DNA of 63,946 nucleotides, the filler included, from Stramenopiles sp. TOSAG23-2 (taxonomy: Eukaryota), in the NCBI GenBank assembly GCA_900128395.1. It is 3 parts of 3 records of this genome, joined end to end, with 100 filler letters (N's around TTAATTAATTAA, not from the genome) between each part and the next. Parts side by side here need not be neighbours in the genome. Positions count along the whole stretch, not along the records: positions 1 to 23,667 come from LT649482.1; 2 more parts are not named here. One strand, written 5' to 3'. This document shows, in pieces, positions 3,220 to 53,865 of the stretch (its first letter is position 1; the number at the start of each line of letters is the position of its first letter). The notes under the pieces are model-generated. The model saw only the letters and a program-made list of their open reading frames with translations, was not told where the DNA came from and ran no database searches. Made by a program: the position numbers and the translations under genes.

Positions 3220-3424
3220 CTGAGAGGATCGGACACCAGAATCTACGTTTTCCTAATCCGATATCCGATACACGATACATGATACATGATACACACACAC
3301 ATTAACATAGTATTATATGTAATATTCGTCTTATGATATTTTAAAATTAAATACGTTGTACGACGTACAAACTCTTCTATCTGATACGTATGATACTAGA
3401 GAATATAAATATACCACCCTGTTG

Positions 3425-4789
3425 CTACAACACACCACGACTAATAGCAACAATTAATAATGAAAACAACGAAGCGGTAACTTGCGAGGTGATAGTTGGT
3501 GTAATTTTAACACCAAAAATTTCTACATACGGATCATGATCTATAACATATTCCTTAAAATCAAGATATGAAGCAAAACATTTTCTACAACCATTTACTA
3601 CAATCGGATCTTCGAACAATATTTCTTTTGTAGCTTTTTCAAATTCAAATGAAAACGATGCTGAATATTTGAACACATTAACCAGTAACGATATTATTGA
3701 AATATTATTCAAAATTAAATATGCCCACAATATACCTGTAATCACACTTTGTGATATGGTCCCACCAAAAGTATTTATTGTTCCACCACCACCACCAAAC
3801 GCAATTATAGTAATTGCAAGTGCAAAACTAATAGAGCATATGAAATAACACGCACGCATAACTTTATTATCATCACGCTGTTTATTGATTTTAAGATGCC
3901 ATTCCCAATCTTTTCTTAGTTTTTTCAATTGCTTCAAAGACTCTTCAGATCCAATATCTTGAGATAAAACTACCTCCTTCATAGCTTTGACATACGCATA
4001 TGTGTAATTGTGAACAGCAATAGAAACTATTTCAATATTAAAAGTTGCATAATTATATATGCATACATATATATAAAATGTAGATGCACAAACAGCTAGA
4101 TAAACAACTGCAATTATTAACGAAATTATATTATTTTCAACAAAATACCGCAAGATCAATGGCCATAAGATCATAGTATGTGTGAAGAATAATACAAGTG
4201 TGAAAATTTTTGCACCTTTGGATTTCGATAAAAAAAGAGTTTCTGCAAACTTTGTATTTTGATTTAGCTGCTCGTTATCTAAACAGTAGACCACCTCTCG
4301 TCTGTATCTTTCTCTGGCTGAATTCCGATTACGAATAAATGCAACAATACCAGTAAGGTTTACACACCCAAAAGCATATATGATTGATATTGTTGGATGA
4401 CACCCAGATGCAATCAAAAATTCATATGCTGCGTAAGAAATCAAAGGACTCCAAACAAAATATATAACAAAAGGCACAATTTTGGCACGTAAAGAACTTA
4501 CATTTGTATTCGAAAAACCTGCAGCATTGACAATCTTTTGTATTGACTTTGGAAATTGATCTGTCGGTAATTTATCCGTCTGTAAATAATGTTTACCATT
4601 CCATGCACCATATATTTTTTTATATTTATCTTCATCAGCATTAATATGATCATTCTCATTATGATTATTAAAAATGACTTTCTTTTCCTCATTATGTCCA
4701 GTAGTCATACTATTACTTTCATGGGGTTCAACTTTATACGATGACGCCATGGTTTTAACTGCCCGTATGTCTTCTTTCTGTAAGTGCAC
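3425..4789 (-). CDS. Seven-TM protein resembling gustatory-receptor-like / DUF3537 7TM ion channels
   Basis: 7 hydrophobic segments, long polar N-terminus, long charged helix between TM4 and TM5, terminal 'FKEYVIDHDPYVEIFGVKITPTITSQVTASLFSLLIVAISRG'. Confidence 0.6.
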   Translation of the reverse strand: MHLQKEDIRAVKTMASSYKVEPHESNSMTTGHNEEKKVIFNNHNENDHINADEDKYKKIYGAWNGKHYLQTDKLPTDQFPKSIQKIVNAAGFSNTNVSSLRAKIVPFVIYFVWSPLISYAAYEFLIASGCHPTISIIYAFGCVNLTGIVAFIRNRNSARERYRREVVYCLDNEQLNQNTKFAETLFLSKSKGAKIFTLVLFFTHTMILWPLILRYFVENNIISLIIAVVYLAVCASTFYIYVCIYNYATFNIEIVSIAVHNYTYAYVKAMKEVVLSQDIGSEESLKQLKKLRKDWEWHLKINKQRDDNKVMRACYFICSISFALAITIIAFGGGGGTINTFGGTISQSVITGILWAYLILNNISIISLLVNVFKYSASFSFEFEKATKEILFEDPIVVNGCRKCFASYLDFKEYVIDHDPYVEIFGVKITPTITSQVTASLFSLLIVAISRGVL

Positions 4790-5277
4790 ATATATATATA
4801 GATACGCTATTCTATATTTTTCAACACATTGTCAAAATATAAGTATTGATGTATAGATTTACTTTCTCACCACGTATCTTTATAAAAGAGTATACTTTAT
4901 ATAATTGAAATAATATTTTTTGATATAATTTATATTAATCCGCATATCCCCGAGCCGAGGGAAAACCTTAATAATTTAAATTATCCACCTATCAAAATGA
5001 CCAATAATTTATACTTGAAATGAAAAGAATACCAAAAATATATACTCTGTACTCATAATCAAAAAGAATTCTTTTGTCATAATTTTTCGTCCCACCCGCC
5101 CGACTACACACAATAATTTTAACTGTCGTAAACTCGTCATGTTGCTCATATATTTAAAATTATAAAGGAAGCTGTATCAGGTATAAAAAGAAGAAGAACA
5201 ACAAAAGATTGTATATATAGATATATAACAAATGAGAAAATTATATATATATATATACATAATCGTATTTAAATATA

Positions 5278-6093
5278 ATGGTAATCCGTGGATTTCGTAC
5301 CAAAGTGGAGCCAGGTCCAAAAGTGGAGGAATTAAAATTTTTATTAGATGCATGGCGTGAAAAAGGACCTTTAATAAAAGTAAAATCTTGTGATGTTGTT
5401 CCTGATTCATCAAACCGTGGACATACTGGTTTGTCCATTGACCATGTACATTTTATTGCATCGAATATATTAAAAAGTGGATTTCGTTCTCGGGATGGAG
5501 ATGTTGCAAAGCGGAGGAAAGTACAGCCGCATGATATACCGGTACTATGTCGTGGTGATTCCACGTGTCCTATTGCAAATGATAGCTTAAAATATTGGAA
5601 AAAAAATGTTCATGACCAACCATTATTTCCCAAAATTGTGATTAATGAAAAACAAGATGGTTGGTTTACAAGCCTTGGAAATGGTCATTTCACGCAAGCA
5701 TTGAATCTATTTAGGCATAATTGTATAAGCAAATTTACTGGAAAGGCATTTGTTGCACCTGAAAGTGATGTAAAATTAATAGCAGCATTGAATGATGGTA
5801 TAGAATCCATCGTATTAAGACAGGAAACACCAATAGAAACACGACGGGAAATTGCTACGTTATTAAATGATACACATGATTATAAATGGACAGTTGATAT
5901 GGATGGTAATGTTGATATTTCACCTGAAAATTGTTATTTGGAACGTTTCAATCAATTTGAGGCACAGACAAAAGTTGCAGATAGTGAAGCATTAAGTGCT
6001 CTTGTACAATTGGAATTAGGAATATTTGAAGATCCAGATAATATGAAACCATCAGAAGAAAAACTGAATGAAACATTAAAATCAAAATTGTAA
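5278..6093 (+). CDS. Hypothetical protein, possible ParB/Srx-like domain
   Basis: 271-aa ORF; 'PDSSNRGHTGLSIDHVHFIASNILKSGF' and 'SLGNGHFTQAL'. Confidence 0.6.
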   Translation: MVIRGFRTKVEPGPKVEELKFLLDAWREKGPLIKVKSCDVVPDSSNRGHTGLSIDHVHFIASNILKSGFRSRDGDVAKRRKVQPHDIPVLCRGDSTCPIANDSLKYWKKNVHDQPLFPKIVINEKQDGWFTSLGNGHFTQALNLFRHNCISKFTGKAFVAPESDVKLIAALNDGIESIVLRQETPIETRREIATLLNDTHDYKWTVDMDGNVDISPENCYLERFNQFEAQTKVADSEALSALVQLELGIFEDPDNMKPSEEKLNETLKSKL

Positions 6094-17365: not shown

Positions 17366-20300
17366 TCATTTTCTACCTGTATTTTGACTTGTATCCTTTT
17401 CTGACAACCACATGTAATGATTGTTGTTAACGTAATATAAAACAATAACATTCTTGTCTGCATTTTGAAAGTTTCTTCCAAATTGAATACCGTTATCTGA
17501 TATTATTTTTATTCGTATTTGAAACATAACTTCAATTAAATATATTTCCGGTTCACCACCCCAAGCTTCTCGGGATATTTTATCTTGGCCAATTCCCAAT
17601 TCAATTCTTTTGCGTATTTCTGTATTTAGGGTCTTTAAAGATATCAAACCACTTCCGGCAATCTTTCGCATTGTCACATTTTCATGATTATCTATTGTTT
17701 CTATCATTAATTTTCGAAGTTCATTTGCACTTTTTACATCACTTATTCCAGGTTCTAGACCTTTCGCTTTGCTAGCTTGAAGAACAGCATTATACAGGCA
17801 ATTTCCATCCCCGTTTACGTTGTTTATTTCGTAGTCTATCTTCATACATCTCAAATTTTTCTTGTCTATTGATTTCAATATTGTTGTAGTATATAATTGA
17901 TAAAAATGACTGTTTTTATCATTTTTTAGATCTTCTTTTATGTGGCCATGCTTTACTAAAAGCTTTATTTTTTCCTCCATGCTATCATCTAAATCATAAA
18001 TTGTGTCGATAGACATGTGCCCATCATCTTTACCACTTTTTCTTTCATCGTCGTCTAAAATCATTGTAAAATAAAACAGGTCTGAAATTACAACATCTGA
18101 AATGACAAATTCTGACAAAGTATCTGGCCAGTTTTTTGGTCCAAACATTTTAATTACCAATGTAGACATCAATTTAGGAATTGTATATACATCGTTCTCA
18201 GTTGATAGACAAACGCATATAATTTTCAAAAGTGGTAATAAAAATGCACACCAGCCCCAAAACACATACCACAATGTGTTGCGTTTTGTGACTTTAAAAA
18301 CACCAAACAGTAGAGAAAAAAAACAAACACAGCCAAATAATACAACCCATAACCATGGAAGAGATACAAAATATAAATCTAATGGGTACTTGTTTATATC
18401 ATTATTTTTGTCGAAAAAGCTTGATTCGAAAATGACACCCATTATGAACAGGGGAATGGCGATTCCAAATACTAAAATTGGTATAAATATTGTCCTACCC
18501 TTCGTACAACAAGAGCAAAATTTATCATACTTAACAATCAAAATAAGGACAGAAAATGCACAAGAAATAAATAATAAATACCAAAGGACGAGATGACTCA
18601 CTTTAATTTCTGCATCATTATATAAGTAAAGGAAAGTCACTGGCAAAATTGTAAGACGAAGTATGGTAGCCAAACCACCAAACATAAGCGAATTAGATAA
18701 TTCGCGCGTTTCTGCGATGTTGTCTTCGGCTAGGAAAAATGCAATACGACCTAAGGTCCAAGGTATACTGATAAGAATAGGAAGAAATACTGTTGCCGAT
18801 TGCGCAAACAATGCCGCTGAAAACCCCATTCTAGTTTGTTTTGTCATTTCATCGCAAAATTTTGAACCACATTGGCTTAGCACTTCATGTAAGTTTAATT
18901 TCTGAACATAGTTTTTTTGGAACCCAACGAACAATGTACCCAGCACACCAATAGCACCAGCTATGGCAAATGCCCTTGAAAACCATAAAAAAGAACGTGG
19001 AGTACCGCACTTATTAGATTCTGGATCTTCATTTTTCTTTAAGACAGGTGTCATTAAATCTGACATCATAGATATAAAGAATAAAACAAAATTGACACAT
19101 GTTATTGTGCCCTGTAATTTCACTGTATCTCCATATTCTGTAACAATTTCATGAAATACAGGAGAATCACTGCGAGTGGTATTCCAACCATAGTTTTCCA
19201 TTACTTCTATTAGATTGGTCCACCCCACTGTCGTTGCATCAATAAAAAAGAGAGGCCAAGCGTCCAAAGCTATAAGTCCCATAAGCAAGGTCCCAAGAAC
19301 TAAGCAGATTCTTCGCCACATAATTCTATCCCCATATATTATTCTATTCACCCTTTCTTTTCTCTCACAGCAAAAAGTCAAGCATGCTGCTTTTTCAGCG
19401 GCGGATGAAACTGCATTTTGAAATTCTCGAAGCCATACACTCTGTGTATCAAAATCATTGTGTTTCAGGTAGTCAAGGAAGATATTATGACTTTTCTCCG
19501 GCGTATGTGCCTCACCAATTTCATTATTTTCAATCTTCGCATTAATTTCTGCAAGTAGTTCCTGAGTTTTCCTTTTCCACACTTCTTCAACGTCTTCAGT
19601 AACCTCTTTTTCTAAGTCTTTTTCAATGTCATTTTTTAAATCCTCTAGTAATTCTTTGTTAGCAGCATCATTTTTCTTATTTTCCCAATTTGTAAATTCA
19701 TTATTTAAGAAATTTCTATTTTGAATTACCATATTTACTATCTTTTTGAATATACTTTCCGTGACGGAAGGTTGTTCAATATATTCATGTAACTCATGGT
19801 ATTTGTCCTTTGAGCTTTCAGTAGCTATGGAAATGTATATAGTCGTTGATTTAAAATAGCCGCATGTTACTATATGTAAAAATGTCGGAATGCAGTCAAC
19901 ACTAATAACTACCCCCTTTAACAAATGCTTATATGTATCGTTTTCCTTAAATAATGTTGTTATTTCTGTTTTAATTTTTCCTTCAATTGTCGGCCCCAGA
20001 AATTTGCCACAAATATCGACTTCAATTTGTATTTTGCGCAACTTCTCTTCTTCTTTTGCTCGTTTAGTCATCAAGATTACTTCTGCTGACTTCATCAACA
20101 TTATGGTCCCCAAAGTAGTTGAAAACATAGTTCCTACCATGACCAAATATAAAAAAAAATCCCCAGGGTAAACATATTTATTAATGCCTTTATCGGGAAT
20201 GTAATTCGGGTTGCTTTGTCGCGTCATATATGCTATCAAACTGGGAGTTAAAAATACTGTCTGTCCAAATATTACACAAATATGCAAAAACATCAAAAGA

Positions 20301-23300
20301 AATTGATATAGATCGCAGCCACCGGTATTACCTGCAATCGTACCGTTGCATAGCCTGCATCTGCCACGATCGGTACATTCGCGAAGACTTTTTGGACAGC
20401 AACATGTCAAGCATCTACAACATCCAGCCCAGTCTCCGCCTTGTACTATCGTCTTCCCTACGACCTGCTCATCATGGTCTTGTACTATAGGTGTTTTGTT
20501 TGAAAAATGACCGTCACTGTTCGCTCCTAGACTAGTTTTATCAGGCAATATTTTAACCTCAATTAGAGCTCCTGTATCTTCGGTGCATTTGGACACTTCC
20601 AGACCAATGTAAACATCTTCCTTTAATTCCACCTTTAACTCATACCCAATTTTATAGCCGAATCCCGGATACGAAATGTCATCAATTATTGCTTTCCCAT
20701 CGCTCACTGTAAGTGACAAAGTAGCCTTTGGCTCCTCCCGCGACAACCGTTTTCTTCTCTTCGCACAGCATGGTGCTGTTAAAAAAAGTAGCCCCAGGGT
20801 ACAACAGAGCGAAATAAACAGTAGTCCATAAAACCCCCCCAAATCTTGGTCACTTTTCTCTTCATTTGAATTCCCTGTTCTGTAAATCATAGACCCAAGC
20901 ACTAAACTAATCATCAAATGAATCAAAAGTATAACAGTAATATTTGGATATATTTTGTTTTTTGCCTGGGAAACTTTCTTTTTCGTCAATTTATAATCTC
21001 TTTCCAACTCCTTATTGATTTTAAAAAAGTTTTTACCATGACCTAAGGGCGAAATATGTAACCACATTTGCACTATGAATATTGTTGTAAAAGACACTAC
21101 ATGTGTCGCAACAAACCACGGTTTGAGCCAACCTACGATAATTTGAAGTGTCATAATTTTACTTGCTTTTGGGGAGACAGCTTCAATTAGTGGATTTTCT
21201 GAAGTATGAGGCTTTGGTACCACTGCATTTGACCATGTGTGCCAAAGAGAAAATGCTTGAAATGCAAAAATGCAGGAGAAATTCAATAAAATTACTGCTG
21301 TAAAAAACATTGATCGTTGAAACGACTTTTTTGACATACTTTCTGCCTTAGATTTTGCAAACATCCACGTCCAAAGGTCATTTGTTACATCTTGGTCACT
21401 GGGTAACAATGACGTTCCTGTATCAGAGCTACTAAGGGCGGTGTAATTGCTATTAATTGCGAAGTTTCTTTTTTGGAGTTCGTAAGCTTTATGATGATGA
21501 TAACAGCAGCCACAACATAAAATCCATTTATAACAGCGGACAATAAGGTATATTAAGAACAGTAGAACCATTCCAAAAATAATCATGTTTTTCCCTACTT
21601 CTTTAGTATGGTTTATGTATACATAAGTTTCAGTTGAATTGAAATAGTGCGCAACAACATCATTGGTACTAAGAAAGTTATTTACTTGAATTTCTATCGG
21701 ATTTTGAATATACCAAAAGATGGCGATACAAATCCAAAATATTACCAACATCAGCGAACAAAAGAATACACTACTTGAAGCATGATCTTTCCACAGATTT
21801 TTGATGTGAGATAATTTGATGGTTTTCCATTTGAGCCATAAATATAGCAATATAACAATAATTGCCACAATTAAAGCGACAATTTCCAACCATAAACCAT
21901 TAAAATGTTTTGGTTCAGGAATTGGAGGTACGGTGGCAGGGCAGGAAGTATACGGAAGCGATTTCCCAAGAAACACTTGTAAATACCCTATTTCTCCATC
22001 GTTAAATTTTTTCACCGACAAACACTGAGAAAGCGAGAAAAGTGTGTGCTTGCAATTACATGCAGGGTCTTTACATTGAAAAATAACCTTTGCAAACCCC
22101 CCTTCCTCCACTACAACTTGACAGTACTCTTTTGAATTACTTCCACTACCACAAAGTTGACAAGCGCCAGAAGAACCTAAGTTTTTAATCTCTTTTGGAA
22201 AAAAGTCTGCATCAGAACAATTTCGATATCTTTTATGTCTTTTCAATCCGCTATTATTAAAAGGCAGAGGGGGATCTCCACCAATCCAGTCCGAAATAAT
22301 AAAATTATCATGCGGTGAAATGGCACCAAATCCTAATGGACACCATGGATGAGCTTGTGTGGCATCATTTTGCGCAAAGAGCAAAACATTACTGTCAGGA
22401 TCGCAAGTGCTAAGAGCTAATGAGAGCTGTGTCGCACAATTTTCACACGTTGGGTTTTCACTAGCTTTTGATGGAGGTACACAATTGAATTTAATTTTAA
22501 AAATGCCATTCTTTTTGGGTTTCCAAATTTGATATCCGCCAGTACCTAGAAATTTTGAAGCGCCAATTGGGGTACGGATGCAAGTGGACATGCTGTTATT
22601 GCTCGCTTGGATTTGAACTATATCGGCCGCAGCACCACTTTCATTTAAATTACATTTACCATTGTTATCCGAAAAAAAACTAAGAAACATTGATCTTGGC
22701 GCGATTGCATTACATGTACAATTCCCTTGCACATCGATTTCAGGCTTTGTTTGACAAACAAATCCTTTAACTATTTTAACTATTTTACCAGCTTTTTTAA
22801 TTTTATAACCAGCACGGCAGACGGATTGATTTGTTGCACAGTATACACCACCGGATTGACATTCTTCATACGATGAGGCACAGCAAACAATTGCATTACT
22901 TTGAATTCTTTGTGTTCGAAGATGTCTGGAATTCGTAACAGATTCAACTGGAGATACCGTAATTTTTGTTGCTGGTTTAGAGATGCAAATGTGCTTTTTT
23001 GGGGGATAATCATGGAGCATTCTTTCAATAACATTATAAATAGGAGCATTGGCGAACTTATAAAATAGTGCAGCATTATTGAGCGCTTGGTAGTCTTTAG
23101 CCACATGACATTTTTCCCATTTACCAGGGTTGGAGCATCTACATTTCCATGTAATCTCAATATAAGGCTCTGTTTGAGCAAGCGAAATTGTTTGCAACTG
23201 TGGATTTGGCACTAAGGGTAATATGGACTGGGGAAATTCTATAAAATCTTGAGCAAGAATTTTATTAATTAAAGGCAACCCATCATTAAGTGAATGCTGA

Positions 23301-23604
23301 ACCAGCATTTTCATCGAACTTTCACCTAAAAATAAAGCATTGGAATTTCGCGCTTGTATAGTAGCACTCGCAGTGGATGCATTCTTGAGTTGAAAAACAA
23401 GTCCCCCGCCATTTTTTTCAAAAGAAATTGACAAATTTTGGGTCACATTGCTCAACGCAGCAAATAGAATTCCGCAATGGGATTTATCTGGTCCAGTCAA
23501 GGGTCCAATACATGACTTAGTTGACGCGTCAATACTCAGTAGCTTACAAGACAATGTCATGTTTAGTTGTTCCTCCCTAACTATTACTCCCGCTGCGTGG
23601 CTTG
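17366..23604 (-). CDS. Giant multi-pass membrane protein with Cys-rich ectodomain and C-terminal OTU cysteine protease; 5' truncated
   Basis: >2000 codons without a stop; about 16-18 hydrophobic segments; C-terminal VNGDGNCLYNAV...WGGEPEI...LYYVNNNHY. Confidence 0.85.
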
Positions 23605-23667
23605 ATGTTACTGAGGATTTAAAAAATGACATTGAAAAAGACTTAGAAAAAGAGGTTACTGAAGACG

Positions 23668-23895: not shown

Positions 23896-25519
23896 TTAGT
23901 ATATAAATAGTCTATATCTAGACCAAAGTTTACCAAAGTGATGATGACGTTTGTTGAATTCACAACTACAATTTCTTTTAATTTGGGAAATATTAATGGA
24001 ATAATAAAGAATGTGACTATGTGACTCTTGTTATTTGAGCAACTGAGCAACAGTACTCATTACTCTCTCTCCTCTCTCCAAATCTCCAATCTCTCTCCAA
24101 ACTCTCAACATTTTCAAGCATACCTCTTCGTCACGTTCACTCCATATCCTTTCTCCATACCACCCCCATAAATCATATTCCAACAATTGCTTTTCTCATC
24201 ACCACCTTGCTGTCCATATAATTTTGCAAAGGTCAATACCCATTCACTCCATATCCTTTCTCCATACCACCCCCATAAATCATATTCCAACAATTGCTTT
24301 TCTCATCACCACCTTGCTGTCCATATAATTTTGCAAAGGTCAATACCCACGGTGTTTCAACGCCAGTTTTAAATGCGCAATTGTGACCGCTTAAATAAGT
24401 TGTTATGTATGTTAGCGAGGTTTTCAACAAGTATAATATATAGAAATAGAGGATATAATTATCATACTTACCTATCATCAAATGGTGGTCTCGCATCGTC
24501 TTTATCACATGCTTCACTTGAAAATTCAACAAATGTTGCAGGCTGATTTGTTGATGGTCGTGATTCAAACGCACCATTAAAACATCCTAATTCATGTTTA
24601 GCTGTTAAAGGTGCCTGGAAGCGTAGAGTAATATGAACGATTGATGTGTTAGAGAAGATCCGTTTTTTTGTTGGTTTTTAGGGGAATAGAATTGTATACC
24701 TACTGGCCAAAATGCTCCATCATTTGTTGCTGTAGTAAATAAAATTGGAAATTTCGTATTAACTTGTAATAAATCTGATTTTAACCAAGTTGACGGCCAT
24801 GGTGCTGTGGACCGTAACGTAATATGAATGAATGGTATGTTAGAGGATATATTTTTTTTTTAGGATTAGGGAAATAGAATAATTTACGTACGTGGACCAA
24901 ATGGACCACATATACCTGGATGTTGTGTAACAACTGCTTTAATCGATGTGGTATTGATAATTTTATTATCTGCTTTTGATAATCTTAATCCAGCTTCAAT
25001 AGAACATGTTGCACCCATCGAATGCCCAGCTACGATAATATTATCCAAATCTACAGTATTATACAGTAATGAATTTGGATCATCATTTGCTAATTTTAAA
25101 TATGAAATACCATGTAAAATAAATTCCCCATTTGTATTTGTCGTTAGTGGATTGGTATCCTTCTTTGGACCTTTTACATATGGAAATACCACAACAAAAC
25201 CATGGGAAGCATAATTCCGTAAATTGGGTAAATACATTTCAATCTTAGCGGTACTACCATGCATAAATACTATTACAGGATATTTCTGTGGTTGTGAAAA
25301 CGTTGGTACAAATGCTACTAATGGTATTTTGTCATATGTTGCATTTACTTGCAGAGGTATAAACGTACCGCCAGGTGAACTAGTATTATATGGATAATGA
25401 TTATCATTTTTTAAGGAGCAATCTTCAAATTTCGTCGACATTGTTGCAGCATTAGTCGTACATATTGTTGAACATAATAATGTTATTAATATGCTTGCAG
25501 ATATGATAGATGCCTTCAT
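23896..25519 (-). CDS. Secreted chlorophyllase/cutinase-like alpha/beta hydrolase, multi-exon (last exon tentative)
   Basis: Signal peptide MKASIISASILITLL; ASHGFVV; GHSMG; spliced exons supply TATNDG (Asp) and SGHNC (His); GT-AG introns join in frame. Confidence 0.8.
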
Positions 25520-25961
25520 CTTTTTCAATATATTATTATTATTATTTTTATTATTGTCTATTAAATTTTTGATTTAATTATTATATATCCAATGTTTGAT
25601 TGAATTATAGATTTTTCAAGACATAGGAAAGGCAATTTAATATCTATATTTATTCTATTCGAACACCACCCTACTAATTACTACTATTATTACGTTATTA
25701 TTAATATAATGAAATTATATATAGACTTTTATAATATCATTTACACGCACACGTACAATCACCGATGACCGCGGATTGGCAAAAACAAACAGAAAGATGA
25801 ACCCAGTCTCGTTCCGCTCTCTTTGAAATCTCTCTCGCATATATATATAGCTATTAATCAACTCGTAAGCCTAACTCTTTTAAAACAATTCTCTATTGTC
25901 TTCGTCTTATATATCAACAACCCCGATTAAAAGATGATAATATACTGCGATATGATATTAA

Positions 25962-28900
25962 CTAATAATTCCATTTGCGTGTTGATGCACTCGCTTTTTC
26001 ACTAACATTTTCCATTAAATTAACAGTATTTGCTAACGTTTTATCTTGTTCCGTCATTTTTAAACCTTTCAATGAAAATCTAGGTTTAATATTGATAGCA
26101 CTTTGACTTTTTGATAACCGCATGGAAGAACTATTACCACCAAGTAATATATTTGGACCACTAATACTATGTTTATTTTTCTGTTGCATTTTTTGTCGTC
26201 GTTTTAATAAATTATTTGATGGATAATCCAATGGTAATATATGCATATTACGTAAATATTTCGATGGTTTACCGGCACTTGTACCACGGCGTTTGTATTT
26301 CTTTTTTGAAGAACTTCTATTACTTCTTGGTCGTATGTATCTACTTGCACTTTTTGATCGACGTAATGGTGTACGTTTTTTCATACGTGAAGAAGACTGA
26401 TTATTATTACGCTGTTTATTAAAATTAGAATGATCTTGATGAAATAAACCTGCTGCAGCAGATACTGGACGTTTTGTAAAATCATCAATACTATACATTG
26501 TTGGTGAGCCAATTGCTGATTTTGGACGTATGGTATTATTGTTATTATTACTATTATTATTATTATAGCTACGACCTAATGTACGTGGCATTGCATATCC
26601 ACGTTCTAATAATAATTTCTTTTCTCTTCTATTATCACGTAATATTGCTTGATCTAATTCATCATTTAAAGGTGTATTACTCATACTAAATTGATCTTGT
26701 AATTTCTTCACAGATTCAATAGTTGCCATAACTTTTTCATTTGTTTGTGCAACCCGTTTAGCAGATTGTGCTCTTTTCATACGATATTGTTTAGATAATT
26801 TGTTATTATATGGCATGGATGATGAGCCAAATGCATTACGTCGTGGGACAACACGTGCATTTGCAGTTTGTGGTCGTTGTTTACGTCGTTGTTTAATATT
26901 TTTAATGGATGTCGATTGATTATCATAATATACTTGACGTTTATCACTATATTTTTCTTCTTCTAAATTATTATCATCAACAAAATCTTGTGTAATAACA
27001 GTACGTTTTGGTGTGGCAGATGATGGGTATTTTCTTCTATCGTTATTCTTATCGTATGTAATACCAGCTGTTGGTGCAGCAGATGATGGACGTTGTTTTT
27101 TATATTTATCTATACTTTGTAAATGTTCTTTTGTAAATGTAGCTGTATGTGGATTGTAATTTTCATCACCAATAACAACAGATGTTGTTAGGAACGTATT
27201 ATCACTATTATTATTATTATTATTATGTTCTTGATCTAATGCAGAAAAGACTTCTACATCTTGTCTTTCTAATCGAACTTTCCATCGTTTACGTATCCAA
27301 TTACGTGTAGCACGTTGCAATACAATAACCGCACGTTGTAATTCCTCTGCTTCTTCTTTTTCTTGTAATCGTTGTTGTACAGATATTTCAGCCCATACAG
27401 ATGATTTTACCAATGCTTGTAATCTAGCAGCTTCTGCAAGTGCATTTGCTTTTTCTAATTTTGTTAATGTTTTTAAAGGGAATGGATGTGTATTTAATGT
27501 CGTTTCATGTTGTGTAATTGAACTGTGTTCCGATGTACGATCGTCATCATCTCCATCTTCCATCGTCAACAATGCTACTTTACTACTATTACGCCGTTTT
27601 GGTTGTGTTGATAATTCATCACTAAATAATGATGCATTCGAAATATCTTTATATAAACGATCTTTTAATTTAATAGTAGCAATTTGATTTTCAGCTTTTG
27701 CATATGCAATTTTCATACTATTATCAATTTTCATAACAAAATCATCCCCACGTATTTCTCTACGTTTTCTAGATGCAAATACTTGTTCTTGTGCACGTAA
27801 TAATGTTCGTTCATTTGCTTTATTTTCAGCAGTGGTTTCACCACCATCTTTTGATGTTGCTAACATTGCTAAATGTACATTCCATCTCATATTTGCTGCT
27901 GCAGTTAATCCACTAACTGTTTTTTTCTTTTTCATTGTTGTATGGTTATTGCTATTGTTATTATTATTTTGATTGGATCTCTCTTCGTGTTGTTGTTGTT
28001 GTTCTTTACGTAATTTACCTTCTTTTGTTTTTAATTTTACTTCTTGGCGTTCCAATGCACCTTGTGGTTCATGTAATGCTACTGATACATTGTTATCTTC
28101 TGCACGTCCAATCGATGCTAATCGTAACCAATCCGTTTCCAATGATACATTTCCTAAATGTGTCACTGCAACCTTTTTACATTTACGTCTATAACCTTTG
28201 GTTGGATGTACTAATGTCCAACGTGCTTTTGCACTTTTTTTACCACCAAAATATGGTACTCTTGATGGTAATACTTGTGGCGTGGCTTGATCCATCCGTG
28301 TACGTGTTATATTGTTTAAATCTATTGCCATGCGACTACCTAATGCAAATTCAAACACATCACCTTCTTCACTAATAAATTCTTGATCTTGTATCATTAA
28401 ACGTACACTATCACCAAAGGATACTGGTCCGAAATTTTTATCACCATCTTGATTTAATATTTTAAATGTAGTTGCATTGTTTAATCCTTCTACACATGTA
28501 CCTAATCCATTTTTTCGATTTATTCGCAAATACCATCCTTGCGATGATTTAAAATTGATATATGAACCATAGACAACTTTTGTGCCAGGTTGAAATTCTA
28601 TCATCATAGCAGCATTACGTGTAGATTGTTGTAATGATGATTTTAATTTTTTCGTCGAAGTAATATTTTTGTTGTTATTGTGTTTGGATGTGGTGGTGGT
28701 AGAATTATTTTTTTTGGAACGTGCTTGTCGTGATGATGGTATTGGCTTTTGTTTTTTTAATTGTACATGTATATGGTGGTGGTCATCGTCGTCGTCATCA
28801 TCATCTTCTGGTTTACGTAAATATTTGGATATATCTGTATGTTTAAACGGTAATTGATTTGGATTTTTTTCTTTTAATATAGTATTAATGGAATGTCCCC

Positions 28901-28973
28901 ATTTTGCTCTTGTTTTCATATAATTTGACGCTTTTACAGCTTTCATGACATTGCTTTTACGTAGGCTTGACAT
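25962..28973 (-). CDS. Hypothetical 1003-aa protein with IQ-like motif, probably cilium-associated
   Basis: AVIVLQRATRNWIRKR (IQ-like); beta-rich N-terminal domain; repeated RPx(S/T)A motifs (RPSSA, RPQTA, RPKSA, RPVSA). Confidence 0.7.
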   Translation of the reverse strand: MSSLRKSNVMKAVKASNYMKTRAKWGHSINTILKEKNPNQLPFKHTDISKYLRKPEDDDDDDDDHHHIHVQLKKQKPIPSSRQARSKKNNSTTTTSKHNNNKNITSTKKLKSSLQQSTRNAAMMIEFQPGTKVVYGSYINFKSSQGWYLRINRKNGLGTCVEGLNNATTFKILNQDGDKNFGPVSFGDSVRLMIQDQEFISEEGDVFEFALGSRMAIDLNNITRTRMDQATPQVLPSRVPYFGGKKSAKARWTLVHPTKGYRRKCKKVAVTHLGNVSLETDWLRLASIGRAEDNNVSVALHEPQGALERQEVKLKTKEGKLRKEQQQQHEERSNQNNNNNSNNHTTMKKKKTVSGLTAAANMRWNVHLAMLATSKDGGETTAENKANERTLLRAQEQVFASRKRREIRGDDFVMKIDNSMKIAYAKAENQIATIKLKDRLYKDISNASLFSDELSTQPKRRNSSKVALLTMEDGDDDDRTSEHSSITQHETTLNTHPFPLKTLTKLEKANALAEAARLQALVKSSVWAEISVQQRLQEKEEAEELQRAVIVLQRATRNWIRKRWKVRLERQDVEVFSALDQEHNNNNNNSDNTFLTTSVVIGDENYNPHTATFTKEHLQSIDKYKKQRPSSAAPTAGITYDKNNDRRKYPSSATPKRTVITQDFVDDNNLEEEKYSDKRQVYYDNQSTSIKNIKQRRKQRPQTANARVVPRRNAFGSSSMPYNNKLSKQYRMKRAQSAKRVAQTNEKVMATIESVKKLQDQFSMSNTPLNDELDQAILRDNRREKKLLLERGYAMPRTLGRSYNNNNSNNNNNTIRPKSAIGSPTMYSIDDFTKRPVSAAAGLFHQDHSNFNKQRNNNQSSSRMKKRTPLRRSKSASRYIRPRSNRSSSKKKYKRRGTSAGKPSKYLRNMHILPLDYPSNNLLKRRQKMQQKNKHSISGPNILLGGNSSSMRLSKSQSAINIKPRFSLKGLKMTEQDKTLANTVNLMENVSEKASASTRKWNY

Positions 28974-47446: not shown

Positions 47447-48603
47447 AAAGTTACAATTATTAATTTATTCATACCTTTCTTGTTTTTTTTTATGTTAAAT
47501 TTAATTTTATAAATGTTTTTATGTGATGTTTATTGTTGTGTATTTTCTTTTGGTTTCTATGTAATCCAGTTAATCTAGTTTTGGTATTTAAGTTTCTATA
47601 TGTTTTTACGTACGGTATCTCTTATTAAACTGGTAATAAAGGGAAAGTTTTTCTTTTTTTTTTTTCCTTCAACTTTTTTATTAGTATTATTCCCATGCTA
47701 TTCCAAGCATGCTAATTGTCTTGTATCGTTGGCCAAGCGCCAAGCTGGCAAGCAGCGGAGAACGAGCTGGATTCGTACAACCTTGAGTCTATCTGCGTTT
47801 TGAAGCAAAATTCGTGTTTTGTCACTTTCTACACTATTCAATGCTATCGTGTATTTCCTACATGTACCAGTTTTTATTCTCCGACTAGATGAAAAACAGC
47901 CATTTGGACATTTTTGCTGTACTATTTCCATGTTACCGTGTATCGCTATCAGCTGGTCTTTTTCTACAAAACTGCCATTTGGCAGTTCTACTGTTCTACT
48001 TAATACAATACGATTTTTTTCTATTTAATTTTATTTTACTACGCCCGTAAGTACAAAGTGATAGGAAACACGGGAAACCACGAACTAACTTAAAGAAACC
48101 TGAGGGAAAATGAAAAAAAGTCTGTAGGTCTAATATAAAGTTCCAGCTGCCGCACAGACGTGCAAACGGCAAAAAGGACCCTGCCTTCAAGTTCACTGCC
48201 TGGCATAATTTTATACTTAAAAGTGGAAATTAGAATACCAACAAAATCCTATAATACCAGCAAATGCACCTTTTAACCTTGTATCAATTCTTCCTCATTC
48301 TCTCTGCATCATCAATCTAAATCTAAATCATGAATCATGGCCCCGCACCATCCATTTTTCATAAAAAAAAGGTAAAGATATACTTATGTACAGTGATGTA
48401 GTTCAATTAAATGAGAAAGTATCTCTCTCTCTCGTACATATATATATTTATTTGTATATAACTCCAAGCCAATAATTTACAATTTTCTGTATGTACATAC
48501 ATAATCGTTTAAATTATAATAATCAATTAGAACGAAGGTGAAAAAAAAGTGAACCCCTGCATAATCATTGAAATATATATATATTAATCTAATAATAATT
48601 GAA

Positions 48604-51600
48604 ATGCAAAATAATAAGTTAGGCTTAACTTTTGTAATTGGGCAATTAGTTGAAAATTCCATACAAGCAAAAGCAACTGGTACATCGAATGATGAGGATG
48701 GAAATGCTACTTTATTAGCTGCGGTTGCTTTAACAAACATGTATATTAATAGCAATATAAATAATATAGCATACATTGAAGCGCAGTTTGATATGATGCT
48801 TATAAATGTTATGCAAGAATTAAATTCAGAATCAACTATTGGCTATGATATTTATATAGCATCAATTGGTGCTATATTAGAAACGACAAAGAATGTAAAC
48901 ATGTATAAGCAATTTTATGAGAAAGTATTGTTACCGATATTGAATGAAGATGAACATTATAATGGCTTCACGCAAGTAGTCGATACAACCTTGAAATTAT
49001 GCCGTAATAATACATTTTGTAATATTTTATATCCACAAATTATTGAAGAATGTATACGTTGTTTAACTATTTCGAATGAGAATAATAATGATAGTAACAA
49101 CAACAACAATAATATATCGATTGAAAAAAAAGTAAATGTTTTTGAAGAAATTTCTAATTTAATAGAAATCTTAAATAGCAATGATAAAGGACAATATACT
49201 GTATTAATATCTAAATTAATTCAAACTGCAAAAGATACATTGAATGGTTCAACAAATATAGCAAAATTATCTTTGCGTGTATTAAATAAAATCCAAATCT
49301 TAAATATGAATAATAGCAGCAGCAGTGATAATAATACTAACAACTCGGATCAAGCAACAAGTGCATATGCACAGGATATCTGGGTTATTATCATGGAGTT
49401 TTACACTTCCACAAATGTTGAACGTAAAAATTTTGCTTATATCATATGGAGTGTCTTGTTTCAACTTTTACCAGATGCATGGAAAGAGGAAAAGGCGTGG
49501 GAAATGATAACATTTGGTTTAAATAGTACTGATGCACTTTTATCGAAACGGGCATATAGTTTATTACGTCGTCTTGTTGATATTGTTGCAACGAATACTA
49601 AATTAAATGAATGGTTGATGGCATCATCCGGAACAACACCAAGCAGCAATGGTAATAATTCAACCCATTCCAACAATAATGATGAAAGTAAAAAAAAGAA
49701 AAAACGGAAACGTAAAAAGAAAGGTTCTATTGATTTTGGGTCAACTCCGCTGGAAACATGGAAAATACGATTTAGTATTTTCGGTTCCATTTTTGAATGT
49801 TTAGATGGAATTCAAGGACATTTAGTGGAAGCAGTATGGCCACAATTTGCACAGTTATGTGCTATTGCGAAATATGAGGATAGCAATCAAAGCTTACCAT
49901 ATAATTTCATGTTATGTGATCATAGATTTATATCTATTTTGTTGAAAAAGTCATGGAGAAACACAAATCCTTCAATTAAGCATTGGACCGTCAGTGCATT
50001 TTTGAAATTTCCACCGATAAAAGGAAAACACTGGGTAGTTGATGAAGATACTATTACAATAGACATGTTGGAAGCGATCAATTCACCAAATTATTTCAGA
50101 CGACATATCAAAGGTATTGAAGAAGATTTATTGAATTTTCTGTTAAAATATGTAAACATGCTGGAATCAGATGAAAAACGAAGAATATTTTTGCAAAGAT
50201 ATATTAAATATTCAAGTAAAATTACCAGAAATGACTTTCCATTAGCTGCACAAATGAAGTTATTTACGCATTTAATGGATGCCAACGTAATAGTACAAGG
50301 CGTTGTTGGTGAAAACGAAGTGAAATATATGCGTGATAATTTTACTAAAAAACATCTTGGCAGTGCATTATCTAGAAAAATCATAACAGAATCATCAATT
50401 AATGCAATTATATATTTTTCAACACCTGGTAGTGTGCCTATATCAGCACTGGGTAATTTTTTTGTAAATGTTCAAAGCACAATATTGCAACCAAAATCGA
50501 CATTGCATAAAAAATTACAAAATTGGATTAAAGAAGATTGGAATTTATCAAAATGTAATAAGAAAAACGATGTAAATGATACTATCACTACGTCGATGAA
50601 GCAAATGAACAATTACATGATAAATGATGATAGTGATGGTAAACAAATATTCGATAATTTATACTCTAATAAATTAAACAAATATGTTTATAACATTACT
50701 AGTTATAAAAATGTGAATGATAATAAGGCTGATAATAATGTAGAAAACGAAATGGACCCACAAACGCTTGCATATATGTTGTCATTAGTGCCTGATATTG
50801 AACATAGAATTAAAATGATTGCACCTGTATTTAAAATTCTCAATAACTCGTATACTCATTCATACATACCAAAAAAAACATTGTTGGGTTTGTTTGAATT
50901 GTTTGTTGGTATTTGTAGTACTACATCGCCATTATCAGATGATAATGATGATAATAGTTGGAATTATAAATTTATATCAGATATGCTAGGTAACAATGGA
51001 CGTGGTGAGCTTTTATCGTATATTGAACATGGATTCGATGTATATTTAAATATTTTATTTGCAAGTACCGACCAGAGGAATTACTCCGTTCATATTGATG
51101 ATAATAATGATAATAGTGAGGAAGCTAATAATAATGATAACAACAATAGAGTGTTAATTCCAATGGTATTAGGGCAATTATTAAAAATTTGTCCATCTGA
51201 TGAAAGGATTTCTACTCTTGCATTAAAATTTATTGAAAAGATTTTATCAAAGATCGAAAATCTAATTGGGGACTCTCTCATGTTTGCAATTAAAATTTTA
51301 GATGAAGTGTTACTAAATTTACTTCATCCAACATCTAATTCTAAAAATGATACGCAAGATTTTAATTACAATAGCAATGAATATATAAATAAGAAGTTCG
51401 ATAAGATAGTAAGTGTCATTGGCGAGTTGAGTTACAAGAGTGATCCGACAAGTAATAAAACAATGGCCTCAAAACAATTAGAAGTAAATGTTACTTCAGA
51501 ATTTCATGCATGTAAATGGAATATGCTATCAACAATATTTGCTTACATTGATAATTATAATACTATCAATACGAAAAACACTTCGTCTTTAGTAATTGAA

Positions 51601-53865
51601 AAAGAGACCGTATTGATCATTGTTGAAATAGCAAAAGATGCGTTTGAGGGTGCTACCACTACGTATTTTTTGCCATTGTTGGAAACGGTAGTATCGATTT
51701 TTCCACAATGGCATGATATTGTTGTATCCAATGGTGGTGGCGATGGAACAAGTGTAAATGTCGAAGATTACTTAAAAAATGTAAATCCATTATTTAAAAG
51801 TGCATGGGTAGCATTTAGTGAAGTTGATCGCAATCGGCTCTCATCGGAACTTGTTGATACCCTTTGCATGTTATTATTTCATGAAAAATTTATGCATGCT
51901 GTTGAATTGCACGAAGATTCCAGCAATTGCATTGCAAAAGATTACATTCACAAATTAACATCTCTTATTAAAGGTGGAAATGCCAACAAACGCATCATGC
52001 ATGGTTTTGCAAAGCAAATATTCAAAATATTTTCCAATGAGATCAGTGGTGAAAAAGTTGCAAAATTATATATTTCAGAAATGGCAGAGTTAATATTGTA
52101 TGAAGAACCGCTTGAAGAACATTTACACCAAGAAGAAAAAGATGTTTTAATTAACGATGTGCATCGTGGTAGATTAAAATATACTTTATTTCATGCTCAT
52201 GTTATGTCATTTTTAGATTACATGGTAGATCAATGCGTTAAGCAGCGTGATATCCATGGAAACAATGACAAATTTAATGAAAGTTTTATATACAAATTGA
52301 CCATACATTTATTAGATATGAATTTCTTAGAAGATTGGAGATTTGAAAATTATATGCCGAATAGCCCGGCACATGCAATGAAGTTGCGGGTATGGCAATG
52401 TCTATGTGTTTTAGCAAGAAGTACCGTACCAGGAAATGTAACTGTAGAATACGTAGAACGTGTTAGTAAAGTATTAGATGAAAATCATTTACCATCAATT
52501 CGATATTATGCAGAGATCTTTTTAGCGCGTTGTTTAGTATGTGATCCATTGTTAAATGTTTCCAAGTATCTTTTGTCCAGGTACAATACGTTTAATATTC
52601 GTACTCCAACATTGGTTTCTTTGCTATTTTCAACAACGTATATATTACCACATTTGATCAAACGTTCAGTTGGTGAGGAAGAAGAAGATAATAGATACAA
52701 TAAGGTTCTATATGAAATAATGTTATCATTGTATCCATGGATGGGTGGTTCAAACGGACAGGCTCGCGTCATTGCACAACATATAGTGGCTACTATAGTT
52801 CATTTCAATGCTGAGAATACGAGCAAATCGGCCGTATACGAAGTGACCCAAGAGAAACATGAATTTTTAAATCATTTTTACAAATATTTAGTAACAAATA
52901 CGGATGTTGCACGTATGATAAAGCGCCAAGTGAAAAACTTAACAAAAGTTGATATCTATAAAATCTGTTCTTTAAATGGGATGATGGAAGGTCAATTAAA
53001 TATGTGGGGCAATATATTTCCTCCTGATATTTTACAAATTTTAAAAGATACAATAACTGTTTGTAATGAAGAAGCTATTGAGGAAGATCATTACATGTAT
53101 ACATGGGTTGCTGCAACAGCACGTGTTTCTCAAAAGGGAAAAAATAGAAAAGAAAGAGCGGATGAAGCGGTTAGATTAGTGAAAGAAACTATGTACAACA
53201 ATAACAATAACAACAACGATGAAAATGATGAAGAGGAGAATAGAATTCGGCCATTTGAATTTCAACGTAAAATATTACCTTGGGGTGATCTTGATACTGC
53301 AGTTGAAGACATGTTACTATCAAACAATCAGAATTCACAGCAAATATCATCAAGAAAAACACGGAAAGAATTTGCACTTAGTCGTAGAAAACAAGAAATC
53401 ATAGTCATAGCTAGCTTAGTAGATAAAGTGCCTAATTTAGCAGGATTGACACGAACGTGTGAAATTTTTGGTGCGAAAAAACTTGTAATTCCAAGTAAAA
53501 AATTTCAAGATGATGATTTGTTTTCAACTATAAGTGTGACAGCTGAGAAATGGTTGAATATTGAATATGTACCAGAATTAGATTTAAAAGATTATTTACT
53601 ATCATGTAAAAAAGATGGATACACGTTGGTTGGTTTAGAACAGACGTCAAATTCTAAATCAATTGAAAATTATAATTTTCAACGTAAAACAGCAATTTTA
53701 TTAGGGAAGGAACAAGAAGGAATTCCTCCGGAATTTATCGATATGCTTGAGGATTGTGTTGAAATACCACAATTTGGTATTGTGAGAAGCTTAAATGTAC
53801 ATGTTAGTGGAAGTATCTTATTATGGGAATATACACGTCAAGGCTTGGTAAATAAAAATGATTAA
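48604..53865 (+). CDS. TARBP1: tRNA (guanosine-18-2'-O)-methyltransferase TARBP1/Trm3
   Basis: Long helical N-terminus; FQRKILPW; SpoU domain ASLVDKVPNLAGLTRTCEIFG, GLEQT, LLGKEQEGIP, IPQFGIVRSLNVHVS; exact start uncertain. Confidence 0.92.
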   Translation: MQNNKLGLTFVIGQLVENSIQAKATGTSNDEDGNATLLAAVALTNMYINSNINNIAYIEAQFDMMLINVMQELNSESTIGYDIYIASIGAILETTKNVNMYKQFYEKVLLPILNEDEHYNGFTQVVDTTLKLCRNNTFCNILYPQIIEECIRCLTISNENNNDSNNNNNNISIEKKVNVFEEISNLIEILNSNDKGQYTVLISKLIQTAKDTLNGSTNIAKLSLRVLNKIQILNMNNSSSSDNNTNNSDQATSAYAQDIWVIIMEFYTSTNVERKNFAYIIWSVLFQLLPDAWKEEKAWEMITFGLNSTDALLSKRAYSLLRRLVDIVATNTKLNEWLMASSGTTPSSNGNNSTHSNNNDESKKKKKRKRKKKGSIDFGSTPLETWKIRFSIFGSIFECLDGIQGHLVEAVWPQFAQLCAIAKYEDSNQSLPYNFMLCDHRFISILLKKSWRNTNPSIKHWTVSAFLKFPPIKGKHWVVDEDTITIDMLEAINSPNYFRRHIKGIEEDLLNFLLKYVNMLESDEKRRIFLQRYIKYSSKITRNDFPLAAQMKLFTHLMDANVIVQGVVGENEVKYMRDNFTKKHLGSALSRKIITESSINAIIYFSTPGSVPISALGNFFVNVQSTILQPKSTLHKKLQNWIKEDWNLSKCNKKNDVNDTITTSMKQMNNYMINDDSDGKQIFDNLYSNKLNKYVYNITSYKNVNDNKADNNVENEMDPQTLAYMLSLVPDIEHRIKMIAPVFKILNNSYTHSYIPKKTLLGLFELFVGICSTTSPLSDDNDDNSWNYKFISDMLGNNGRGELLSYIEHGFDVYLNILFASTDQRNYSVHIDDNNDNSEEANNNDNNNRVLIPMVLGQLLKICPSDERISTLALKFIEKILSKIENLIGDSLMFAIKILDEVLLNLLHPTSNSKNDTQDFNYNSNEYINKKFDKIVSVIGELSYKSDPTSNKTMASKQLEVNVTSEFHACKWNMLSTIFAYIDNYNTINTKNTSSLVIEKETVLIIVEIAKDAFEGATTTYFLPLLETVVSIFPQWHDIVVSNGGGDGTSVNVEDYLKNVNPLFKSAWVAFSEVDRNRLSSELVDTLCMLLFHEKFMHAVELHEDSSNCIAKDYIHKLTSLIKGGNANKRIMHGFAKQIFKIFSNEISGEKVAKLYISEMAELILYEEPLEEHLHQEEKDVLINDVHRGRLKYTLFHAHVMSFLDYMVDQCVKQRDIHGNNDKFNESFIYKLTIHLLDMNFLEDWRFENYMPNSPAHAMKLRVWQCLCVLARSTVPGNVTVEYVERVSKVLDENHLPSIRYYAEIFLARCLVCDPLLNVSKYLLSRYNTFNIRTPTLVSLLFSTTYILPHLIKRSVGEEEEDNRYNKVLYEIMLSLYPWMGGSNGQARVIAQHIVATIVHFNAENTSKSAVYEVTQEKHEFLNHFYKYLVTNTDVARMIKRQVKNLTKVDIYKICSLNGMMEGQLNMWGNIFPPDILQILKDTITVCNEEAIEEDHYMYTWVAATARVSQKGKNRKERADEAVRLVKETMYNNNNNNNDENDEEENRIRPFEFQRKILPWGDLDTAVEDMLLSNNQNSQQISSRKTRKEFALSRRKQEIIVIASLVDKVPNLAGLTRTCEIFGAKKLVIPSKKFQDDDLFSTISVTAEKWLNIEYVPELDLKDYLLSCKKDGYTLVGLEQTSNSKSIENYNFQRKTAILLGKEQEGIPPEFIDMLEDCVEIPQFGIVRSLNVHVSGSILLWEYTRQGLVNKND

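Follow-up and report, generated by a model that had tools for sequence, protein, structure and literature searches.

Among the described seven-transmembrane ion channels (7TMICs), the closest comparisons for the gene studied here are the odorant and gustatory receptors (ORs and GRs) of insects, such as BmGr9, MhOr5 and Orco (families 7tm_7 and 7tm_6), the gustatory-receptor-like proteins (GRLs) and Class-A Euk7TMICs of unicellular eukaryotes, and the plant DUF3537 family. The gene lies on the minus strand of a 63,946-nucleotide stretch of DNA, filler included (hereafter the window), from Stramenopiles sp. TOSAG23-2 (assembly GCA_900128395.1), in the part taken from LT649482.1. In ORs and GRs, the anchor domain is reported to make most of the inter-subunit contacts (PMC10769236, PMC12635824, PMC9998090), and GRs are described as carrying a beta-hairpin between helices S7a and S7b (PMC12635824). 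The parts of 7TMICs reported as most conserved are the anchor domain (the cytosolic parts of transmembrane segments TM4-TM5 and of TM6-TM7a), the pore helix TM7b and TM5-TM6 (bioRxiv 10.1101/2023.08.30.555482).

Candidate GRLs have been accepted on criteria of which ii to v concern length, seven TM segments, a cytosolic N-terminus and intracellular loops longer than the extracellular ones (Benton et al. 2020, PMC7746228). The same source gives a GR/GRL signature within TM7b, (T/S)Yhhhhh(Q/K/E)(F/L/M), as "diagnostic, but not definitive"; chytrid GRLs and DUF3537 have lost most of it. Unicellular eukaryotes and prokaryotes have already yielded thousands of reported 7TMICs (bioRxiv 10.1101/2023.08.30.555482). 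Among the 7TMIC papers listed in literature searches, the titles and abstract openings point to none in which the function of a unicellular member was studied.

The protein studied here probably has the 7TMIC fold, as a sequence-orphan member of this superfamily. We favour a 7TMIC-like architecture because circumstantial evidence from topology, helix lengths, conservation, nearest neighbours in the ESM Atlas and a predicted anchor-domain tetramer agrees. The first-pass annotation had proposed an OR/GR/GRL-like layout, and this holds for length, the seven TM segments, the predicted cytosolic N-terminus, loop lengths and predicted helix lengths, as well as for the Atlas neighbours and the predicted tetramer.

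Predicted topology and helix layout

Topology was derived from Kyte-Doolittle hydropathy and the positive-inside rule. The 441-residue protein falls within the expected range of about 350-500 residues, close to the size of BmGr9, MhOr5 and Orco. It displays seven hydropathy peaks (listed as TM1 to TM7 in the table), which coincide with helices in two AlphaFold2 runs. The loops on one side are long (39, 63 and 60 residues), and those on the other side are short (6, 6 and 15 residues, plus a tail of 1 residue). Lys and Arg together number 26 in the 162 residues of loops 1, 3 and 5, whereas loops 2, 4 and 6 and the tail, 28 residues in all, contain none. From this charge difference, the positive-inside rule predicts a cytosolic N-terminus and an outer C-terminus, so that the inner loops would be longer than the outer ones. 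Such a seven-pass layout, with short outer loops and nearly no C-terminal tail, resembles that of insect ORs and GRs, and it agrees with the topology criteria applied to unicellular GRLs, Class-A Euk7TMICs and DUF3537 (Benton 2020; Himmel 2023). The protein differs from the PHTF-like Class B by its short first inner loop (39 residues).

Most of the structural features listed in the first-pass annotation were recovered, namely seven hydrophobic segments and the lack of a signal peptide (by inspection, the first 89 residues are hydrophilic). The long charged helical region that it had placed after TM4 corresponds to residues 234-296, with 11 Lys+Arg and 9 Asp+Glu, helical in both AlphaFold2 runs. 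Its last helix at the extreme C-terminus was also found, with only L441 between the helix and the stop codon. Ahead of TM1, a short predicted helix at residues 68-76 could correspond to S0/TM0.

We compared helix lengths with the boundaries published for BmGr9 and MhOr5 (PMC10769236). The lengths come from the two AlphaFold2 runs, which place helices at the same positions; S2, S5 and S7a were defined by merging adjacent helices 1-3 residues apart. In these low-confidence models, the helices (with the values for BmGr9/MhOr5 in brackets, and two values where the runs differ) measure 31 residues for S1 (28/28), 38 and 37 for S2 (46/46), 55 and 52 for S4 (52/54), 50 for S5 (53/52), 46 for S6 (45/45), 14 for S7a (15/15) and 22 and 21 for S7b (21/25). 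On these predicted lengths, the protein would resemble insect ORs and GRs in its long S4, S5 and S6, as well as in its short S7a and the length of its last helix. The predicted linkers differ. The S4-S5 linker has 6 residues, against 57 in BmGr9 and 65 in MhOr5, and the outer S5-S6 loop is Gly-rich and has 15 residues, against 5 and 2, respectively. The predicted linker between S7a and S7b has 23 and 17 residues in the two runs (14/13).

Near the C-terminus, a predicted 14-residue helix is followed by P-YVEIF-G-VKIT-P and then by the terminal helix of 21-22 residues. The alternation of strand, Gly and strand between two prolines fits the S7a-S7b hairpin, and we infer a hairpin-like linker at this position; in both poor AlphaFold2 models, the segment P407-P418 appears as coil and no strands are seen. 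The first-pass annotation had described here a terminal Y-x6-V-x-I-F-G-V-x-I motif. The motif is present (Y401-VIDHDP-Y408-V-E-I-F-G-V-K-I416), with a spacing one residue off the one described, i.e. Y-x7-V or Y-x6-Y-V. That annotation also took as established a hydrophobic-x-x-F-G motif ahead of TM7 in the known families. This claim found no support: the available portions of three 7TMIC sources (PMC7746228, PMC10769236, PMC12635824) do not contain this motif and give a single motif, in TM7b.

The last helix, TITSQVTASLFSLLIVAISRGV, contains eight Ser, Thr, Asn or Gln residues. A polar stripe formed by T419, Q423, S427, S430, S437 and R438 falls within 100 degrees of the helical wheel, a disposition that suits a pore-lining or a tightly packed helix. 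The end of this helix differs from that of insect ORs and GRs: it lacks TYhhhhhQF and ends in ...AISRGVL, which would place an Arg near the outer mouth.

Conservation, language-model neighbours and predicted tetramer

Two full-length relatives were found in public protein collections, P0002 (441 residues, 85% identical) and P0003 (451 residues, 75% identical). Identities by segment, given here against P0002 and P0003, respectively, differ widely along the protein. The second inner loop (residues 234-296; 98% and 86%) and the third (95% and 92%) are highly conserved, and TM7 is the best-conserved TM segment (95% and 82%). The lowest values are those of TM2 (55% and 55%), TM3 (55% and 50%) and TM6 (62% and 54%). 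The match to the pattern reported for 7TMICs is partial, since the putative anchor and the last helix agree with it while TM5 and TM6 are not conserved. The conserved putative anchor region and last helix, together with variable TM2, TM3 and TM6, resemble what is seen in insect ORs and GRs.

Contigs from sequencing runs add a variant of the same locus. The gene or parts of it were found in marine metagenomes and in six runs recorded as RNA, and contig mapping covered three RNA runs of three studies and one DNA run. All three RNA libraries gave contigs on the gene at 99-100% identity and without joints; presence in an RNA library is not in itself proof of transcription. No weight was given to the uncovered stretches of the gene and of the 4833-5300 spacer in the RNA runs. 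The contigs of run X16, a polyA library (4214-4389 and 4595-4822, the second spanning the ATG), and those of run X17 (3387-3581, spanning the stop codon, and 3669-3874) show zero base differences from the window. Run X11 gave one contig with three differences (3617-4049) and a diverged contig (3240-3787). The latter agrees with P0002 at 12 of 13 amino-acid changes and, on this sequence agreement, is a P0002-type variant. Over residues 322-441, 24 codons differ between the window and this variant, 13 of them nonsynonymously and 11 synonymously. Of the former, twelve are concentrated in residues 347-370 (3641-3712, minus strand), and residues 371-441 display 1 nonsynonymous and 4 synonymous codons. 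These codon counts indicate strong purifying selection on the C-terminal third, with the block 347-370 nearly unconstrained. Recombination and diversifying selection are both possible sources of the hypervariable codons.

We also searched for neighbours of the protein among the features of the ESM Atlas. A common Pfam family is lacking in 22 of the 30 nearest clusters, and the eight named ones all carry 7TMIC families: DUF3537 in two clusters (99% of members), 7tm_7 in three (57%), DUF267 alone in one (10%), DUF267, Trehalose_recp and 7tm_7 together in one (22%, 12% and 10%), and 7tm_7 with DUF267 in one (23% and 20%). The last cluster is automatically named "Serpentine Receptor, class R", and nematode SRR proteins are themselves counted as 7TMICs in PMC9998090. 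No family of G-protein-coupled receptors (GPCRs) or transporters appears among the 30. Scores range from 0.93 to 0.94, 196-202 of the 256 features being shared, and P0002 used as the query gives the same picture. DUF3537 is thus represented among the nearest named neighbours.

Finally, ESMFold2 was used to predict a complex of four chains, each running from TM4 to the C-terminus (residues 205-441), alongside three controls. The interface score ipSAE was 0.51, 0.51 and 0.36, whereas the best control stayed at 0.00; the partner confidence score (pLDDT) was 60-63, and the runs had at least 59% of their contacts in common. Among proteins of solved structure, 21 of 30 pairs of the same chain and 0 of 23 single chains attain the mark used for such scores, counts that are only approximate for four copies. 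Low-error contacts are confined to residues 261-279, 375-384 and 392-405; residues 375-384 of one subunit contact 272-279 and 393-405 of the next, in a head-to-tail ring pattern. In the models, these residues are predicted to be the cytosolic tips of S4 and S5, the end of S6 and S7a. The predicted contacts thus lie in the region of the putative anchor domain, as in insect ORs and GRs. Tetramer modelling, suggested in the first-pass annotation, gave predicted contacts in that region, without confident contacts of TM7 and outside the calibration of the tool.

Weighing of the possible readings

If the protein is a 7TMIC, the following mechanism can be proposed. A protein of 441 residues would cross the membrane seven times, starting in the cytosol and ending outside. 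TM4, TM5 and TM6 would extend into the cytosol as long helices and, with S7a, would build the anchor domain that holds four subunits together. The hairpin PYVEIFGVKITP would return the chain to the membrane, where S7b, with its Ser/Thr/Gln stripe, would line the central pore, and the variable TM2, TM3 and TM6 would enclose a ligand pocket. The tetramer and its interface are model predictions; the three-dimensional fold, ion conduction and ligand gating are inferred. Ligand gating and a chemosensory role, proposed by analogy with the family, are tentative and rather unlikely. We give still less weight to a fuller proposal, in which a sequence-isolated 7TMIC lineage of marine protists would be a ligand-gated chemoreceptor channel, with its anchor and pore helix frozen and its TM2/TM3/TM6 pocket diversifying between sister lineages. 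Under that unlikely proposal, the variation of the pocket would suggest that single cells are tuned to different cues from the environment, from prey or from mates.

Several results weigh against assignment to the 7TMICs, and most of them concern sequence similarity. The window protein matches no Pfam family at E ≤ 10, and two families alone appear across the three aligned members, COG2_C (E 0.17) and Pex24p (E 0.44). Each of these was seen in one of the three members, and we dismissed both as chance. Sequences of the PDB gave one match with the protein (E 0.84) and three with the profile (E 0.35 or worse), none of them an OR or GR; the best of the latter, a CREB bZIP basic region against residues 136-172 of the first inner loop, was taken as a chance of composition. 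Against 1.84 billion representatives, phmmer found six matches, all of them relatives or fragments that are 53-94% identical, and the profile search at E ≤ 10 retained 3 of 7999 candidates, the same close relatives only. A word-seeded protein search likewise kept 3 of 7052 candidates. The HMMER searches of Pfam, the PDB and the 1.84 billion representatives thus give no link to ORs, GRs, GRLs or DUF3537, and a regular-expression search found no match to the GR/GRL TM7 motif in the protein. In this last respect it resembles chytrid GRLs and DUF3537, which likewise keep little or nothing of the motif. However, for GRLs, Class-A Euk7TMICs and DUF3537 the link to the superfamily came from sequence searches (BLAST, HHblits or PSI-BLAST) or from confident AlphaFold models, and so far neither route connects the present protein. 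Searches for related loci gave 554 pattern matches in JGI metagenomes and 98 in IMG/VR, none of which was confirmed.

The structural lines carry reservations of their own. The AlphaFold2 models are unusable (pLDDT 34.2 for the full length, built from a three-sequence alignment, and 40.4 for residues 60-441), and it is from these low-confidence models, with helices merged, that the helix lengths stem. Foldseek gave 0 matches at E ≤ 0.001 in the PDB for either model, and Foldseek and VIA-align together retrieved only matches of a generic helical kind. ORs and GRs are missing from these lists, an absence that is uninformative with models of this quality. In the Foldseek search, the top rows were membrane domains of ABC exporters (TM-score 0.13-0.30); an ABC-exporter-like domain was rejected, the likeness being one of long helices only and the protein having no nucleotide-binding domain. 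The Atlas recognition value, 2043, falls below 2300, a value reached by 91 of 100 known families, and the high Atlas scores are therefore weak evidence. In the predicted tetramer, no confident contact of TM7 was reported, residues that are not named being uncertain rather than absent from the interface. Moreover, four truncated copies lie outside the calibration of the tool, the success of the prediction may reflect memory of solved OR/GR tetramers, and the Atlas and the tetramer are both ESM-based and hence not independent.

These results leave some room for a lineage-restricted seven-pass protein of unrelated fold, e.g. transporter-like or organellar, which would share its topology with 7TMICs by convergence. 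Such a protein would have no similar family by sequence or profile, would lack the TM7 motif, would retrieve no OR or GR in any fold search and would stay below the Atlas threshold, all of which is observed. The match of helix lengths from S4 to S7b would then be a coincidence, and this explanation has also to account for the eight named Atlas neighbours out of eight that are 7TMICs, with no GPCR or transporter among 30, for a predicted tetramer interface restricted to cytosolic helices and for a last TM helix that is conserved best. An unrelated fold is a real, though less likely, possibility. The PAQR/HlyIII, GPCR-type and opsin-type families of seven-pass proteins were rejected, as no Pfam match was found; GPCRs and opsins have their N-terminus outside. 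An appreciable possibility, although short of probable, is that the protein does have the 7TMIC fold and is no chemoreceptor, as is suspected for many non-insect 7TMICs. It could then be a channel of an internal membrane that is constitutive or gated in some other way, or a protein of such a membrane that is not a channel. The small number of genes points this way: tblastn of the protein on the window found only itself (next best E 0.70) and thus no paralogue there, and the two full-length relatives are the only ones in protein collections, so that no expanded receptor repertoire is seen. In this the gene differs from insect ORs and GRs and resembles GRLs and DUF3537, which are also low in gene number. 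Reviews, in the portions available, leave undecided whether non-insect 7TMICs act as channels or as chemoreceptors (PMC9998090, PMC12635824). The fast divergence of the putative pocket helices TM2, TM3 and TM6, against a nearly frozen anchor and pore, would suit a diversifying ligand site, an argument for chemoreception that is weak because TM helices often tolerate substitutions.

By comparison, a spurious reading frame or a dead gene is very improbable. The main point in its favour is that five further relatives (P0004 to P0008) are short and frameshift-like fragments, which may suggest low-quality assemblies of related organisms. Against it, about 1e-11 open frames of this length would be expected by chance across the whole window (31% G+C), and two collinear full-length relatives exist. 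The purifying selection on the C-terminal third and the contigs of three RNA libraries on the gene also contradict it. The gene is real, on the length of its open frame, its relatives, purifying selection and RNA-library contigs.

If the assignment to the 7TMICs is right, the protein is an unusually isolated member of a known superfamily and not a new kind of protein, and it may already be included in published 7TMIC sequence sets (Himmel et al. 2023). As a small, apparently intron-less and single-copy candidate present in marine RNA libraries, it would be suited to asking whether the channel mechanism of ORs and GRs predates animals, and its natural variants set a variable putative pocket against an invariant putative pore and anchor. 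The case also shows a limit in practice, as members without sequence neighbours elude searches with hidden Markov models and structure prediction based on multiple alignments.

Gene model, host and neighbouring genes

The open reading frame (ORF) reported in the first-pass annotation at 3425-4789 is present on the minus strand and would encode 454 residues if begun at a GTG. The gene itself is best read from the ATG at 4750, because the two full-length relatives, P0002 and P0003, start there or 10 residues earlier. The 13 upstream codons are probably part of the 5' untranslated region and not coding. A (TA)n run at 4791-4800 lies immediately upstream of this extension, and two out-of-frame ATGs (first bases 4791 and 4829) are found within the apparent 5' leader. 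In this region (4789-4829), one RNA-library contig shows a length difference of two bases. No intron was detected in the gene, which is collinear with its relatives and covered by RNA-library contigs without joints.

Features of the gene and its divergent neighbour, in window coordinates
Feature	Position	Strand	Basis or remark
Coding sequence, 441 codons and TAG stop	3425..4750	-	ORF; start agrees with P0002 and P0003
In-frame extension up to GTG	4751..4789	-	Homologues start at ATG 4750; polyA-library contig covers 4595-4822
Hydrophilic N-terminus, residues 1-89, predicted cytosolic	4484..4750	-	Hydropathy, charge, models
TM1, residues 90-112	4415..4483	-	Hydropathy; helix 84-114 in both AlphaFold2 runs
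TM2, residues 119-140; predicted helix runs into cytosol to ~155	4331..4396	-	Hydropathy, models
Inner loop 1, residues 141-179, Arg/Lys-rich (8 Lys+Arg)	4214..4330	-	Sequence
TM3, residues 180-201	4148..4213	-	Hydropathy
TM4, residues 208-233, membrane part of a predicted 52-55-residue helix	4052..4129	-	Hydropathy, models
Charged, predicted cytosolic helices, residues 234-296	3863..4051	-	TM4 extension, 6-residue turn, TM5 extension; putative part of anchor domain
TM5, residues 297-319	3794..3862	-	Hydropathy
TM6, residues 335-358	3677..3748	-	Hydropathy; outer half and following residues (347-370) hypervariable against the P0002-type variant
Predicted cytosolic extension of TM6 and putative S7a, residues 359-406	3533..3676	-	Models; highly conserved
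P407-YVEIF-G-VKIT-P418, candidate S7a-S7b hairpin loop	3497..3532	-	Sequence
TM7, putative pore helix S7b, residues 419-440	3431..3496	-	Hydropathy
Divergent neighbour ORF, 271 residues, no Pfam family	5278-6093	+	527-bp spacer shared with the gene

The divergently oriented neighbour has relatives at 100%, 90% and 78% identity and then a long tail (141 of 628 candidates at E ≤ 0.001); its named relatives, from marine dinoflagellates and green algae, are about 40% identical. By these sequence matches, its product is a member of a widespread and uncharacterised family of protist proteins. Because the identity series of the neighbour (90% and 78%) and of the candidate channel (85% and 75%) run parallel, P0002 and P0003 appear to be orthologues from sister lineages and not paralogues. 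The comparison of the two genes further suggests either a much higher rate of evolution for the candidate channel gene than for its neighbour or a restriction of that gene to a narrow clade. The host is plausibly a marine microbial eukaryote, since the gene is found in marine metagenomes and metatranscriptomes. This fits the uncultured flagellate proposed in the first-pass annotation only as far as a marine microbial eukaryote is concerned.

The window consists of ordinary eukaryotic nuclear DNA, with genes for protein kinases, ankyrin repeats, Gpi16, a mitochondrial carrier, subunit C of the V-ATPase, CDC50, a TLC domain and RPE65, and partial matches to Pfam models in several of them indicate introns. 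The window includes 265 N, taken as an assembly gap.

Two very long uninterrupted ORFs were also noted, 17366-23632 (minus strand, 2088 residues) and 48568-53865 (plus strand, 1765 residues). Their sole Pfam matches are small C-terminal domains, an OTU cysteine protease domain in the former and a SpoU methylase domain in the latter, and their other 1600-1900 residues have no family. For a third ORF, 25962-28973 (minus strand, 1003 residues), Pfam gave nothing at E ≤ 0.001. The ORFs 24884-25528 and 57790-58761 (both minus strand) weakly match the chlorophyllase, PAF-acetylhydrolase and PETase families and may be paralogous alpha/beta hydrolases. Finally, 59235-61031 (plus strand) encodes a complete RPE65-type carotenoid oxygenase (E 3e-59). 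Enzymes of this type can make retinal-type apocarotenoids, and this one may be relevant to light sensing in the host.

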